In this document: piece by piece, positions 36,871 to 42,704 of the stretch
How the letters are laid out: every line of letters begins with the position of its first letter
How positions within the stretch are numbered: the stretch's first letter is position 1
Source: Candidatus Babelota bacterium
GTDB taxonomy: Bacteria > Babelota > Babeliae > Babelales > Chromulinivoraceae
Assembly (NCBI GenBank): GCA_026389025.1
Contig: JAPLIQ010000022.1
Coordinates: 1,946-65,945, forward strand
Length of the DNA: 64,000 nucleotides
Direction: 5' to 3'
Notes under the pieces: model-generated
What the model was told of the DNA's origin: nothing
The model's input: only the letters and a program-made list of their open reading frames with translations
Database searches by the model: none
Translations under genes and position numbers: made by a program

Positions 36871-36902
36871 AATCCCCGCAGAGATGTGGGGATTATTTTT
36901 TT
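36871..36902 (+). terminator. rho-independent terminator between convergent genes
   Basis: AATCCCC-loop-GGGGATT followed by ATTTTTTT. The right arm overlaps the stop codon of the minus-strand permease gene. A second hairpin (TTCACATAT...ATGTGTGAA) lies at 36825-36849. Confidence 0.5.
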
Positions 36903-37738
36903 AGATGTTGAAAAAACAATGTTAAAAAAAACAAGAGTCCATTCACGGTTGCAATCGATCCTGCAATTGAAACATTGAAAAAATGGGCCACTATGCAACC
37001 GCTGACTGCAGCAATAAGTCCAAGCAGGCAAGCGGTGATCAGCATGTGTGATAATCGCTTTGTAAGCAAGTAAGCAGTTGCGGGTGGAATAATCATAAAG
37101 GCAACAACTAAGATTGCACCAGCGCACTCAAAAGCACCTACAATGGTAACGGCTGTAATGGTCATGAGTCCGTAATGAATTAAGTGCGGACGGTAACCGA
37201 GAAGCGTGCCATAGTCTTTATCAAAGGTTGCGATCTTTAACGCTGGATAAAGAGCTGCAATGGTGATGATGTTGACAGCTAAAATAAGAGACATGGTCCA
37301 GATTGAGTAAGGTCCAACATCTTTTCCCCATAGCGTTAAACTATGAAATGGTGCAAATGAAAGTTCGCCGAGCAGTACAGCATCAATATCGATATGAATT
37401 GTGCTTGCGTACAAATTAATTAAAATAATGGCGATAGAAAATAACAGTGGAAAAACAATTCCAATGACAGCGTCAGGTTTGAGCCGTTTGCTGTAAATGA
37501 GCAGTTCTATAAAAGCCACCATGACAATTCCTGTAAGCGTTGCTCCTACAAAAATCAAAGGAGAATGCAGATTGCCTACGATAAAAAATGAAAGAACAAT
37601 GCCGAGCAAAATAGCATGGCCAAGCGCATCACTCATCAAACTTGTACCACGTAAAATTAAAAATGTTCCAGGCAGGGCGCAAGATGCAGCAACCAGAAGT
37701 GCAGTTACAAGCAGTTGTAGATAAATAATATTTATCAT
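36893..37738 (-). CDS. metal (Mn/Zn/Fe) ABC transporter permease, TroD/YtgD-like
   Basis: 281 aa, ABC-3 family-like multi-TM protein (MSDALGHAILLGIV). Last gene of the SBP-ATPase-permease-permease operon. Confidence 0.8.
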   Translation of the reverse strand: MINIIYLQLLVTALLVAASCALPGTFLILRGTSLMSDALGHAILLGIVLSFFIVGNLHSPLIFVGATLTGIVMVAFIELLIYSKRLKPDAVIGIVFPLLFSIAIILINLYASTIHIDIDAVLLGELSFAPFHSLTLWGKDVGPYSIWTMSLILAVNIITIAALYPALKIATFDKDYGTLLGYRPHLIHYGLMTITAVTIVGAFECAGAILVVAFMIIPPATAYLLTKRLSHMLITACLLGLIAAVSGCIVAHFFNVSIAGSIATVNGLLFFLTLFFQHLKK

Positions 37739-38874
37739 GATTGCCCTTTATGATGCTCTATTGCCCAAGCAAATCCTTTTGGGGTGAGTCGGAAAAAGTT
37801 TTTTCCTGTCGACTCAATCAAACCTTGTTTTTCAAGATAAAGCAGCGTTGCTTTTGTGCCTTTTTTCCCAATGACTTGAAGGGCTTTGATGTCATGCGGA
37901 TGATATGGATCCGTTTTACTTTCATTAAAAAGCATAAAATGTGAAAGCATTTTTAATGCATGAATTTTTCTGACTTGTGATTTTTTTGCAAGCCACTGTG
38001 TCAGTACTCCACGCGGAGCGATCAGAATTGATAGAAAAGTAACAAGTGTGGCAATGACCACAATGGTTGGGCCCGTTGGCAAGTGAACTACTGCGCTACT
38101 TAAAAGTGTTCCAGATATTGTCGAAAATATGGCAAAGCATGAGCTTAAAAAAATCATTGTTGAAAAATTTTGAGTCCATTGACGAGCTGCTGCGGCAGGT
38201 GCAATGAGTAGTGCACTGATTAAAATAACGCCAACAGTTTGCAGGCCAACAACGATAGTAAGCATAGTGGTCATGGTCAAAAGCATAGAGATTTTCTGAG
38301 TTGGAACGCCGATAGCTTGAGCGTAATCTGGGTTAAATAAAAAAATCTTATACTCGCTAAAAAATAGTTTTAAGCAGATGAGACTTACTACCATGACGGC
38401 TACGATCATATAAAAATCGCTGTATAAAATCGTTGATGCGTTACCGAGTAAATATTTTGCAATGCCGGCTTGATGAGCTGTCGGGTATGTTTGAATTTTA
38501 CTAAGCAACATAGTGCCAAGTCCAAACGAAGTCGCAAGCACTATGCCAAGAGCAGTATCTTTTTTAAGCGTGCTGTGCTCGGTAATATAATTAATTGCCA
38601 TAGCTCCAATGCTGGCAGAAATAATGCCTCCGAGTAAAAGTATGCACGGTAGCTTGCTGCCTGTGAGTAAAAAAATTCCAGCAATACCTGGAAGCGTTGC
38701 ATGAGCAATCGTATCACCAAACAAGCTTTTTCTTTGAAGTAGCACAAAGCAGCCCATGATTCCAGAACTGATGGCAAGAAGTCCGGTTCCGCAAAGAATT
38801 AAAAGTAGTGTTTGATCAAATTGAATCATTGACGTCATCATTAAAAAGATTAGGTGCGCAAAAAGTGAGAGCAA
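37735..38874 (-). CDS. metal ABC permease fused to a C-terminal DtxR/MntR-type winged-helix domain (YtgC-YtgR-like)
   Basis: ABC-3 permease body (FGDTIAHATLPGIAG). An extra ~85 aa follows the last TM: ...IHALKMLSHFML...TKATLLYLEKQGLIESTGKNFFRLTPKGFAWAIEHHKG. The track start at 38874 is TTG; ATGs at 38841 and 38829 are alternatives. Confidence 0.75.
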   Translation of the reverse strand: MLSLFAHLIFLMMTSMIQFDQTLLLILCGTGLLAISSGIMGCFVLLQRKSLFGDTIAHATLPGIAGIFLLTGSKLPCILLLGGIISASIGAMAINYITEHSTLKKDTALGIVLATSFGLGTMLLSKIQTYPTAHQAGIAKYLLGNASTILYSDFYMIVAVMVVSLICLKLFFSEYKIFLFNPDYAQAIGVPTQKISMLLTMTTMLTIVVGLQTVGVILISALLIAPAAAARQWTQNFSTMIFLSSCFAIFSTISGTLLSSAVVHLPTGPTIVVIATLVTFLSILIAPRGVLTQWLAKKSQVRKIHALKMLSHFMLFNESKTDPYHPHDIKALQVIGKKGTKATLLYLEKQGLIESTGKNFFRLTPKGFAWAIEHHKGQS

Positions 38875-39571
38875 TATTTTCAGGCGTTAAAACTGTTTGC
38901 GTTGGTCCTAAAGCGATATGTTTTATATTCATCAAAAAGGTCCAGTCAAAATATTTTTTTACCGTAGTTATATCATGATGCACGACAATAATTGTTTTGC
39001 CTTGACTGCGTAGCTGTTGTAAAAGTTTTAAAATGATTTGCTCTGTAACAATATCGATGCCTGCAAAGGGCTCATCTAAAATAAAAATATCAGCTTGCTG
39101 TGCAAGTGCCCTGGCAAGAAAAACTCGTTGTTGCTGTCCGCCAGAAAGCTGACTTATGTGCCTGGTAGCAAACTGATCCATGTTGACCATTTCTAAAGCT
39201 TGCTGAGCAATTTCTCTATCTTTTGCAGTAGGGCGTCCAAACAGTGAAAGATGTCCATAGCGACCCATGAGCACTACATCAAAGACATCGGTTGGAAATG
39301 ACCAATCAACAGAACTTTTCTGAGGAACATAAGCAATATTGTGTAGCTTTCGGTTGTAAGGCTGACCAAAAATTTTGATAGAACCAGTGGTTGGTTTAAT
39401 TATCCCAAGAATCGATTTGAGAAGCGTTGTTTTGCCGCTGCCATTGGGCCCAATGATGCCGAGTAAAGTTCCTTTTTCAGCAAAAAAATCAAGATCCCAA
39501 ATAACCGGTTTTTCATGATAAGCAACCGTGAGATCTTTGACAAAAATGGCATTGTTCTTTGGGTCAATCAT
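38816..39571 (-). CDS. metal ABC transporter ATP-binding protein (TroB/ZnuC/YtgB-like)
   Basis: Walker A GPNGSGKTT, signature LSGGQQQR, Walker B FILDEP. Confidence 0.9.
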   Translation of the reverse strand: MIDPKNNAIFVKDLTVAYHEKPVIWDLDFFAEKGTLLGIIGPNGSGKTTLLKSILGIIKPTTGSIKIFGQPYNRKLHNIAYVPQKSSVDWSFPTDVFDVVLMGRYGHLSLFGRPTAKDREIAQQALEMVNMDQFATRHISQLSGGQQQRVFLARALAQQADIFILDEPFAGIDIVTEQIILKLLQQLRSQGKTIIVVHHDITTVKKYFDWTFLMNIKHIALGPTQTVLTPENIALTFCAPNLFNDDVNDSI

Positions 39572-39604
39572 TGGAATTTTTGATTTGAGGATAGAAAAAT
39601 AAAC

Positions 39605-39633
39605 AACTATTCTAAGTATATCATGAAATAGTT
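39605..39633. promoter_or_regulatory. inverted repeat upstream of the ABC ATPase gene, candidate operator
   Basis: AACTATT-N15-AATAGTT, 34-62 nt upstream of the ATG at 39571. In sense orientation it brackets a TATACT -10-like hexamer. A 7-bp arm in AT-rich DNA could occur by chance. Confidence 0.25.
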
Positions 39634-39704
39634 TAATCGAGAAATTGGCTTTCTTTCTCCATGTAAGATTTACTTTTTTTAGAAAAACAAGTCACTGCGC
39701 TTTT

Positions 39705-39992
39705 CTATTTCTGAGCATTCTTGGACGCTCTCTTTGCAAACATTTCTATGAATTCTTGCTGTTGTTTGAAGACTATCTCTTGATATTGTCTTATAGCTTC
39801 TAACTCTTTAGCTAAATCGAGCCTTTTAGCTCTCTCATAATCGTCTTTTTCTTTTATGTACTCTAATAATATTTCAGGATCGAGAGGTCTTGGTTTTACC
39901 CACCCTAATTGGTCGTCCGAGCTTAACGATGCAAAAACAATTGAAGCATGCGCTATGCATAAGCAGATTAAAAATTTTTGTGTTTTTTTCAT
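39705..39992 (-). CDS. small secreted coiled-coil protein embedded in the metal ABC operon
   Basis: 95 aa. Signal peptide FLICLCIAHASIVFA. The start overlaps the SBP stop (TAATG), implying translational coupling. Confidence 0.5.
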   Translation of the reverse strand: MKKTQKFLICLCIAHASIVFASLSSDDQLGWVKPRPLDPEILLEYIKEKDDYERAKRLDLAKELEAIRQYQEIVFKQQQEFIEMFAKRASKNAQK

Positions 39993-40930
39993 TAACGTAG
40001 CAGTCCATGGACAATTGCATCAACGTTTGATTGCAGCATCCCAAGATAGGTGCCTTGCTCAGTACTCGGTGATCCTAGCGCATCTGAATAAAGTTCATCG
40101 CCAATGCACACATTAAAGCCCAGTGCGCTGACCCCTTGCTGTAAAGCTTGAATGTTACGAGATGGCACAGATGTTTCTACGAAAATAGTTGGAATTTTAT
40201 GCTTATAAATAAAATGGACAAGATGTTGAACGTCTTTTGTTCCGGCCTCGCTTGCAGTGCTAATGCCTTGCAGGCTTACAACTTTGCAATCGTATGCTTG
40301 CGCAAAGTATGAGAAAGCATCATGGCCTGTAATTAAAATTCGTCTTTTTAATGGAATTCTTTGGATATCAGCTCGCGTTGAAAAATAGAGGGCATTAAGT
40401 TTTTCTAAGAATTCTTTTTTATTTTCTTCATAAAAATCATGATGCTGTGGACTATTTTCTTGCAGCACGCATGTGATTGTTTCGATGGCGTAACTCCACA
40501 ACCGAGGATCAAACCAAACATGAGGATCGGTAAAATCTGCATGCTCTGTGGATTTAATTAAAAAGTCTTGTGGTATATCTTTAGTGACGGCAACTGTTTT
40601 TTTAATGGTAGCCATTTTAGCAAACAGCTCGCCCATACGAGCTTCCAGGTGCAGTCCATTGTAAAAAATAATATGAGCTTGAGAAATTTTATATACATCT
40701 TGCTCAATTGGTTTGTACAAATGAGGGTCAACACCTGGTCCCATTAAAATTTCAAGATCTATGGTGCCTTGTGCTATCTGTTTGATTGTATCACCAATGA
40801 TGGTTGTCGTGCATACAACAAGAGGCTTGGACGAAATCTTTGGAGTTTTATTTATAACGAAAAACCAAAAAGCAGCCACAAGAAAAATGAATATAATCGA
40901 TAGTGTTGCTGTTAGGTGTTTAAATTGCAT
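39992..40930 (-). CDS. metal-binding ABC substrate-binding protein (cluster A-I, TroA/ZnuA/YtgA-like)
   Basis: 312 aa with an N-terminal anchor. Motifs GVDPHLYKP, DPHVW and HDAFSYF are typical of TroA-family SBPs. Confidence 0.8.
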   Translation of the reverse strand: MQFKHLTATLSIIFIFLVAAFWFFVINKTPKISSKPLVVCTTTIIGDTIKQIAQGTIDLEILMGPGVDPHLYKPIEQDVYKISQAHIIFYNGLHLEARMGELFAKMATIKKTVAVTKDIPQDFLIKSTEHADFTDPHVWFDPRLWSYAIETITCVLQENSPQHHDFYEENKKEFLEKLNALYFSTRADIQRIPLKRRILITGHDAFSYFAQAYDCKVVSLQGISTASEAGTKDVQHLVHFIYKHKIPTIFVETSVPSRNIQALQQGVSALGFNVCIGDELYSDALGSPSTEQGTYLGMLQSNVDAIVHGLLR

Positions 40931-41330: not shown

Positions 41331-42704
41331 TCAAGAAGCAGCGGGAAGATGCCCTTTATAAGCAGAATCATTGGTGTGCATATTGATAGAAGCGGGCAGT
41401 TGCAGTTTCTTTTTTTGTTCAAGCATGAACAATCGTCGAATCTCTCTCCATTCATATTCAGCAATATTTATAGCGCCATACACCTTTTGATTGTAGATAT
41501 TAATGTTGTAATCATCGGGAACAAACTTTGAAGCATGGTGCGTCATGTGTTTTAACAATGCGGTATCTATGAAAGGAAATTTTGCTCTAAAATGTTTTTT
41601 GTAGGTGTGATATGGCATGAATTCAATCGTATTAAATTGAGGTTTAATGTGAGCAACAAGATCACGTGGCGTATCTGGGTTTATTTGAATATATTTTAAG
41701 AAAATAGGTAAAAACGTTAAAACTGGCAGAGGCTGAAGTGGAAACGTTGTGCGATAGGTTAAAATAGTCCAACCCATAAACCATAGTTCAAAATGTCCTG
41801 GATCATAGTTAAGTTCTTTAAAGTGTTTTCTGAGAGCTTTTGGATCTTGCGGCAACTGATCAAAAACATACTTATCTGATTTTGGTTCATATTCTGTAAT
41901 TTTAATTCTGATCTGAGTTAGTTTTTCAGGCAATGTAAAATTGCGACGCTTTGAAAATTTCTTTCGTGAAAAAAATCTTTTAAACGAAAAGAAATCAAGA
42001 GTCTGAACTTGATCTGCTCGAGAATAAAAATTATAAACCTTTTTAAAGATTGGGCTGTTGATTAAATAATCTGTTTCGACTTGGATCGGTGTTCCAATTA
42101 ATAATAACTCGTCAATGCTAAATTGTTTCGATATTGGTTTGGTTGTGTGCAGTGCGCCAAGCTGAAGTGCAAGGTTGCCGCCATGGCTATAACCGATAAG
42201 TCTTATTTTTGGTGTAAAGCCTTCACTGATAAGTTTTTTGATTAATGCTTCAAGGTCTTGATGCAAAAATGCTGATTCAAGGTATCGGAGTTTATTACTG
42301 ACCAGCCCACTCCAACCAAAAGTATAATATTGATTAGACGCAGGGTTTCCCGCCTGTTTTGAAACTTCTTCAAATGAAGCAGCTAAGATAGGTGCTGCGG
42401 CGTTATTGTGTGGATGATCAATATCAATTCTATGCAAACCGAGTCCAGCTATTGCTTGGTTTTTATAAAAGAATGGATCTCGACGATTAATTTCAGTTGA
42501 TCGATAATACACTGATTCCTCGATTGAATCAGTGAGCATTTTTATAATATTTTGAAAGTTAAGATGTGGGCGCAGTGAAAACGATCCATGAATAAAAACG
42601 GTAACCCAAAGATCTTTGCCCTCAGTTGTCTTAGCATCTTTCAAGGCGTTGATACTCTTTTGGCTAGCCAGTAATAATAAAATAAACAATTTTGCATTAT
42701 TCAT
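41331..42704 (-). CDS. secreted alpha/beta-hydrolase (lipase/esterase-like)
   Basis: Signal peptide. VFIHGSF and nucleophile elbow GYSHGGN (GxSxG). Confidence 0.55.
   Translation of the reverse strand: MNNAKLFILLLLASQKSINALKDAKTTEGKDLWVTVFIHGSFSLRPHLNFQNIIKMLTDSIEESVYYRSTEINRRDPFFYKNQAIAGLGLHRIDIDHPHNNAAAPILAASFEEVSKQAGNPASNQYYTFGWSGLVSNKLRYLESAFLHQDLEALIKKLISEGFTPKIRLIGYSHGGNLALQLGALHTTKPISKQFSIDELLLIGTPIQVETDYLINSPIFKKVYNFYSRADQVQTLDFFSFKRFFSRKKFSKRRNFTLPEKLTQIRIKITEYEPKSDKYVFDQLPQDPKALRKHFKELNYDPGHFELWFMGWTILTYRTTFPLQPLPVLTFLPIFLKYIQINPDTPRDLVAHIKPQFNTIEFMPYHTYKKHFRAKFPFIDTALLKHMTHHASKFVPDDYNINIYNQKVYGAINIAEYEWREIRRLFMLEQKKKLQLPASINMHTNDSAYKGHLPAAS

Follow-up and report, generated by a model that had tools for sequence, protein, structure and literature searches.

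The C-terminal tail of an ABC-3 permease encoded in a 64-kb window of Candidatus Babelota (Dependentiae/TM6) DNA is a native winged-helix domain: it belongs to a tail family of heterodimeric Tro/Sit-type (ABC-3) permeases and is neither a truncated YtgR/DtxR repressor nor an assembly artefact. By “window”, we mean the whole stretch of 64,000 nucleotides (nt) that was analyzed, which lies on contig JAPLIQ010000022.1 of a 0.91-Mb assembly, 93% complete. The permease is the first of two encoded in a metal-uptake operon, and an earlier note on this DNA, made from the sequence alone, had read its tail as a YtgC-YtgR-like fusion to a DtxR/MntR-type repressor, apparently truncated to its DNA-binding part. 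As for the role of the tail, our leading candidate, put forward tentatively, is that it serves the transporter that carries it, in cis, as a cytoplasmic module for metal sensing or regulation.

All coordinates below are those of the whole window, and residues are numbered along the 379-amino-acid (aa) open reading frame (ORF) read from the TTG at 38874. This ORF (37735–38874, minus strand) was confirmed. Its ABC-3 domain covers residues 23–284 in Pfam and leaves 95 residues (285–379), which agrees with the C-terminal cytoplasmic extension announced by the earlier note for the first permease. The AztB/SloB/ZnuB-type permease models of NCBIfam also match the protein, below their cut-offs. The true start of permease 1 is probably the ATG at 38829, 14 nt inside the ATPase gene, rather than the TTG at 38874, because its homologues, as well as the database protein P0002 (364 aa), begin with MIQFDQ. 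The features of permease 1, with their evidence, are the following:

37735–38829, minus strand: permease 1 (TroC/SitC position), probably 364 aa from ATG 38829; homologues start MIQFDQ
38023–38808, minus strand: ABC-3 transmembrane domain of permease 1, residues 23–284; PF00950, expectation value (E) 3.8e-62
37738–38022, minus strand: cytoplasmic tail of permease 1, residues 285–379; AlphaFold2, Foldseek, hhalign, ratio of nonsynonymous to synonymous substitution rates (dN/dS)
37891–37923, minus strand: conserved loop ESKTDPYHPHD (E318 to D328) between helix 1 and helix 2, candidate metal-binding or contact site; conservation in 120 homologues
37828–37857, minus strand: helix 3 (TKATLLYLEK), at the recognition-helix position of a winged helix-turn-helix (wHTH); translation and AlphaFold2 model

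The tail is a true winged helix. The AlphaFold2 model of the tail alone, built with the tail alignment A3 (32 sequences), has the H1-strand-H2-H3-strand-strand topology of this fold, with a predicted local distance difference test score (pLDDT) of 80.8 and a predicted template modeling score (pTM) of 0.65. It comprises, in order, an APRG hinge, a basic linker and helix 1 (290–318), a short strand (327–328), helix 2 (329–335), helix 3 (340–349), two wing strands (353–357 and 360–363), and helix 4 (365–378). The winged helix anticipated by the earlier note is, thus, what structure prediction returns; the segment LLYLEKQGLIESTGKNFFRLTPKGFAWA, which it had proposed as recognition helix and wing, corresponds to helix 3 and the wing of the model, and the tail does end about where the dimerization/metal-binding domain of DtxR would begin, the profile alignments to DtxR-family chains stopping at their residue ~80. 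All Foldseek matches in the PDB are winged helices (AF1382, MarR-family proteins, the winged helix of MCM8, DR2539, and IdeR), with probabilities of 0.99 at most and every E-value above 0.05 because the domain is short. Profile searches of the PDB gave sub-threshold matches to eS10 (E 0.005), DR2539 (E 0.013), ScaR, and MarR proteins.

What could not be upheld is the DtxR/MntR-type label. The tail does share its winged-helix topology with the N-domain of DtxR/MntR/IdeR proteins, such as DR2539 of Deinococcus (PDB 8pvt/8pw0), with which it is collinear over ~67–72 residues (Foldseek probability 0.96, root-mean-square deviation 2.3 Å, 71 columns). With hhalign, the tail family scores 94–95% against five DtxR/MntR N-domains of the PDB (E ~1e-7, 65–67 columns) and 94% against MarR; DtxR against MarR reaches 93%, and reversed or column-shuffled controls stay at or below 1.2%. 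Neither PF01325 nor PF02742 matched the tail alone at E ≤ 10 or the whole protein at E ≤ 1, and neither is among the 25 Pfam families most frequently matched (47 matched overall) across the 32 tail-family members; the tail alone only yields weak, generic wHTH matches in Pfam (Mrr_N, 0.004; HTH_27, 0.08). A DtxR-type identity is, therefore, not demonstrated, since hhalign scores MarR and DtxR N-domains alike and the two Pfam models find no match. Unlike the tail, DtxR-family proteins do not have the DPxHxHD loop, and their metal sites lie mainly in their second domain, which the tail does not possess.

The tail is also a family-wide feature. We found 4150 permease relatives at E ≤ 1e-20, and the best 120 full-length homologues are nearly all 355–407 aa long; all 120 proteins of at least 355 aa taken from the listed homologues, which constitute our residue conservation set, match the tail profile A3. 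Their source labels include Omnitrophota, Margulisbacteria, Marinamargulisbacteria, Babeliales/Dependentiae, and one bin labelled Woesearchaeota. The most constant tail residues are H327 and G367 (120/120), L347 and G289 (119/120), T364 (117/120), and W361 (111/120). Between helix 1 and helix 2, the hallmark of the family is a loop, E-x3-D-P-x-H-x-H-D, in which, besides H327, P323 is kept in 108 of the 120 proteins, H325 in 107, E318 in 93, D328 in 87, and D322 in 84 (with N in a further 30). The complete signature reads as an AP-x-R-G hinge, this loop, a G-[RK] turn, L347, and a [WF]-x-L-T-x-x-G wing; every element is present in the window protein, whose sole departure is F361 where W is usual. 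The net charge of the helix 3 block (tail residues 53–66, i.e., 337–350) is +3 in the window protein, with a median of +2 in the permease 1 family and of −3 in the tails of permease 2 type (see below).

The sequence of the tail is under purifying selection: in the closest pair, dN/dS is 0.081 for the tail vs. 0.085 for the membrane domain, and the tail ranges from 0.08 to 0.14 across the closest relatives. A tail of ~90 residues is, thus, the native architecture of the whole family and not the truncation that the earlier note had supposed. The artefact that it had considered, a fusion of two genes by a frameshift, is excluded as well, the same architecture being found in 9/9 genomes of the genus, in one sister genus, and in 120/120 homologues of at least 355 aa.

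A profile built from six close tails was compared with 1.84 billion representative sequences and retrieved 33 clusters (50% identity), all of them permeases of ~360–380 aa or fragments; none of these 33 clusters contains a full DtxR fusion of ~450 aa. The tail family is widespread and is represented by no Pfam or NCBIfam model. Genuine free-standing copies of the tail were not found, three short matches having been examined at their locus and the others judged to be fragments from their sequence only. The three were rejected: P0015 sits in a frameshift-ridden contig, P0020 is on a 1-kb low-coverage contig, and P0010, beside permease 2, is what remains of the 3′ part of a truncated permease 1. 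P0039 was also discarded as a tail protein; in it, a zinc-ribbon/helix-turn-helix (HTH) N-terminus resembling that of an insertion sequence is followed by a fragment of the tail, and the protein is probably an insertion chimera. P0021, P0022, P0035, and P0040 are unrelated proteins in which two to seven winged-helix modules (…GLIE…YYKITEQG…) follow one another in tandem; these modules match the tail profile in its stretch from helix 3 to the wing.

Outside Dependentiae, we compared six loci with a tailed first permease, and all six also have a second permease of 368–372 aa. The tails of these second permeases form a paralogous family, A4 (hhalign A3 vs. A4: 97%, E 1e-10), with conserved His/Glu positions of their own. 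Their helix 3 is acidic, a feature better suited to contacting proteins than to reading DNA. A separate regulator gene leads five of the six operons, of the Fur family in L038 and L047 and of the DtxR family (PF01325/PF02742) in L048, L049, and L050. Tails, thus, do not replace the operon repressor, since the same operons carry their own Fur or DtxR genes; together with the paralogous partner tail and its acidic helix 3, this weakens the functional analogy with YtgC-YtgR that the earlier note had drawn. Tails on both permeases would be the ancestral state. Double-tailed operons also adjoin oxidative-stress genes (an Fe/Mn superoxide dismutase at L036:9749-10375; an AhpC/Redoxin protein at L047:2127-2678), neighbours that fit a role in manganese or iron supply.

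Within Dependentiae, our sample consisted of 151 genomes, of which 59 have ABC-3 permeases. The permease 1 tail is present in 10 of the sampled genomes (9/9 of this genus and one of a sister genus) and the permease 2 tail in at least five others; none has both, and most of the 59 have neither. The tail is, thus, optional in this group, a pattern typical of an accessory regulatory domain. The A4 profile has no match in this genome or genus, and the permease 2 protein terminates directly after its last membrane helix. Permease 1, for its part, stops where permease 2 begins (the stop and start codons overlap in ATGA), which leaves no room or remnant for a further domain. As permease 2 is devoid of the paralogous tail, the locus is a single-tail variant, and this genus would have kept only the permease 1 tail. 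The close Dependentiae relatives P0072 and P0083 (286–292 aa) have no permease 1 tail. At L043:2454-3682, the locus is decayed: the residues of the last membrane helix of permease 1 and the tail (a 125-aa ORF) are followed by an intact permease 2, and the upstream permease, ATPase, and substrate-binding protein (SBP) genes are replaced by two divergent genes for small secreted proteins, an arrangement seen in two independent samples.

The usual metal regulators were also looked for. In the window genome (93% complete), PF01325 has no match, and stand-alone regulators of MarR or ArsR type were not found either; Fur has no match in this genome or in 20 relatives. The sole MarR/ArsR-type HTH match in the genome (C23:50423-50551; L051:619-1668) was set aside, as it comes from a Fic-domain protein of 349 aa whose C-terminus is a winged helix. 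The PF01325 matches seen in Dependentiae are likewise spurious, the only one over the cut-off being the C-terminal HTH of a Fic protein.

Among known systems, the closest relative of this arrangement is the long Tro-type permease, TroD. In Treponema, tro operons encode a TroC of 298–304 aa and a TroD of 366–367 aa, as well as TroR (PMC2628430); as in our locus, the two ABC-3 permeases (TroC and TroD of troABCDR) are heterodimeric, and one of them is longer by ~70–90 residues. A C-terminal winged helix was predicted in TroD by structure modelling in a paper of November 2026 (PMC13749626), and this is the single mention of such a tail that we found in the literature. By its length and this modelling, TroD would be a member of A4. 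Another Dependentiae family has a Tro-like layout (genome G002; L035, G002:C13, 3300-5342), with an untailed first permease of 311 aa and a tailed second permease of 367 aa. The second permease, thus, bears the tail in Treponema, judging from gene length, and in G002, where the sequence shows it, unlike in the window, where the first one does, with a tail of a paralogous sub-family that has the DPxHxHD loop and a basic helix 3.

The comparison with YtgC-YtgR (CT069) of Chlamydia trachomatis, proposed by the earlier note, holds for the layout: an ABC-3 permease with a cytoplasmic C-terminal winged helix in an SBP-ATPase-permease-permease operon, in an obligate intracellular organism with few regulators. 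YtgR is a complete DtxR-like repressor that includes its metal-coordinating residues; once released by cleavage, it binds the ytg promoter together with Fe2+ (PMC5599777). Unlike it, the tail described here consists only of the ~70-residue wHTH core, ends 14 residues after the wing without a dimerization/metal-binding half, and belongs to a separate family that coexists elsewhere with free-standing DtxR or Fur genes. The earlier claim that the tail has no metal sensor of its own is also doubtful in view of the conserved E318-x3-D322-P-x-H325-x-H327-D328 loop, with its invariant H327.

ABC importers are known to carry trans-inhibition domains, such as the C2 domain of MetN and the C-terminal domain of ModC, both established by experiment, which belong to the ATPase and have folds other than the winged helix. 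Our working analogy is with these domains, in which a cytoplasmic appendage binds the imported substrate and slows transport; unlike in MetN and ModC, the appendage here is on the permease, is a winged helix, and would have a function that we infer. In the reading we favor, the tail would hang from the last membrane helix via the conserved AP-x-R-G hinge and a basic helix of ~25 residues, in a position beside the ATPase dimer; its E-x3-D-P-x-H-x-H-D loop could bind either the metal brought in or a surface of the ATPase or permease that depends on metal, and, in a metal-replete cytoplasm, the tail would damp transport, i.e., a trans-inhibition carried on the permease. The conserved polar residues of the loop (H327, invariant; H325, E318, D322, and D328) go beyond what is usual for a bare DNA-binding wHTH, and the profile search found the tail attached to permeases or as fragments only; both observations suggest a module at work on the transporter. 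More speculatively still, Mn, Fe, or Zn at the loop might lock or slow the transporter, which would make the tail the first trans-inhibition module on an ABC-3 membrane subunit and the only metal-uptake control of the cell.

One has to keep in mind that several points weigh against a tail that senses metal and acts on the transporter. As in DNA-binding wHTHs, helix 3 of the permease 1 tail is basic (+3) and follows a conserved G-[RK] turn; the His/Asp/Glu residues of the loop could be structural instead of metal-binding; the genome has no Fur/DtxR match and no stand-alone MarR- or ArsR-type regulator, a gap that a tail acting as a transcription factor would fill; and the AlphaFold2 model of full-length permease 1, built on a 6-sequence alignment, is unusable (pLDDT 42.5) and does not show where the tail docks. 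To our knowledge, no permease-borne trans-inhibition domain is known in ABC-3 importers.

A first alternative is a DNA-binding domain, either tethered to the membrane or released by proteolysis as an analogue of YtgC-YtgR, that would repress the operon from the promoters upstream of the ATPase gene and/or of the first gene of the cluster, its HxH loop making binding metal-dependent. Besides the basic helix 3 with its preceding turn and the missing regulators, this reading draws on the winged-helix fold, on an alignment to DtxR-family N-domains that is collinear from helix 1 to helix 4, on the chlamydial precedent and the permease-repressor fusions reported in 11 phyla (PMC5599777), and on the term “winged helix DNA-binding domain” applied to the TroD tail from modelling (PMC13749626). 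We consider it unlikely. The tail has no dimerization domain, and a transporter of this lineage carries just one tail; neither PF01325 nor PF02742 is matched; in other phyla, dedicated Fur or DtxR genes are found in operons that encode the same tails; helix 3 of the partner tail is acidic; and no genuine free-standing copy turned up. The DNA side is no more favorable, as the candidate operator palindrome described below is not conserved at 79–92% protein identity, whereas the −10 element it flanks is.

A tail without any sensing role, which would stabilize the permease-ATPase assembly or recruit a partner (a metallochaperone or a protease) with its His and Asp as fold or interface residues, seems to us improbable too. 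Winged helices are often interaction modules, and those of eS10, MCM, and methyltransferase dimerization domains are indeed among the matches of the tail; in most lineages, moreover, tails are paired as paralogues, and they are always attached to a permease. Such a docking role is, however, hard to reconcile with the many Dependentiae transporters that work untailed and with lineages that drop either tail, if the tail is needed for assembly, and an invariant His in a loop close to acidic residues, on a metal transporter, points more to ligand chemistry. Finally, the tail might be a vestige without current function, heading for loss in a shrinking genome, as the loss of the permease 2 tail here, the untailed P0072 and P0083 (286–292 aa), and the decay of L043 to a tail fragment and permease 2 could suggest. 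This is very improbable: the selection analysis disfavors it, with a dN/dS of 0.08 in the tail equal to that of the membrane domain, and the tail is found in every sampled genome of the genus, with all the family-invariant residues kept.

ABC-3 importers (Tro/Sit/Mnt/Znu-type) are the main route of Mn, Fe, and Zn uptake in many bacteria, pathogens included, and their regulation is usually viewed as purely transcriptional. If the tail both senses metal and gates the transporter, metal homeostasis would have an extra, post-translational layer; if the tail binds DNA, the YtgCR idea would extend to a much larger and structurally simpler family. The single-tail and no-tail variants of Dependentiae, in genomes without the usual regulators, amount to natural deletion experiments. 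The locus itself adds a variant (a tail on the first permease only, with no usual regulators) rather than a new principle.

On the minus strand, the gene order is a ZnuA-type SBP, a 95-aa ORF, a 133-nt gap, the ATPase, permease 1 with its tail, and permease 2. The SBP-ATPase-permease-permease order given by the earlier note is, thus, correct (ZnuA, ABC_tran, and two PF00950 matches). The other features of the operon are listed here:

39992–40930, minus strand: ZnuA/TroA-type SBP, periplasmic metal-binding, 312 aa; PF01297 ZnuA, E 2.5e-72; syntenic in all genus relatives
39705–39992, minus strand: 95-aa ORF, coupled to the stop codon of the SBP gene; not conserved as part of the operon
39615–39623, minus strand: extended −10 element TGATATACT of a predicted internal promoter upstream of the ATPase gene; TGnTATACT in related loci
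38816–39571, minus strand: ABC ATPase subunit, 251 aa, TGA stop at 38816–38818; PF00005, E 5.5e-32
36893–37738, minus strand: permease 2 (TroD/SitD position), 281 aa, tail-less in this lineage; PF00950, E 1.8e-45

The gap upstream of the ATPase gene (39572–39704) is predicted, from its sequence, to hold an internal promoter with this extended −10 element. Of the 11 related loci, nine have the motif TGnTATACT ahead of the ATPase start; L028 only has TAGTATAAAC, and L027 and L035 have none. In the window, an inverted repeat, AACTATT-N15-AATAGTT (39605–39633), flanks the −10 element. We do not count it as an operator because the closest relatives, L026 and L001 (79–92% protein identity), do not conserve it, and the repeat is specific to this genome. 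No shared motif was seen between the two promoter regions, i.e., upstream of the ATPase gene and of the first gene of the cluster.

What lies between the SBP and ATPase genes varies: the spacer is occupied by the 95-aa ORF in the window and in L026 and is empty in several relatives; it measures ~0.7 kb in L029 and holds 1.3–2.3 kb of other DNA in L027, L032, L034, and L001. The 95-aa ORF (39705–39992) has no match in Pfam, and its only counterpart, in L026, is 54% identical. Synteny is otherwise kept in the genus, in the order 457-aa secreted protein, glutaredoxin-like gene, SBP, variable insert, ATPase, tailed permease 1, and permease 2. The 457-aa protein (window 41331–42704) has a signal-peptide-like N-terminus and a GYSHGG motif (alpha/beta-hydrolase-like), with no match in Pfam; in 10 of the 11 related loci (57–92% identity), it is found in synteny with the SBP and the glutaredoxin-like gene, and it is absent from L035/G002.

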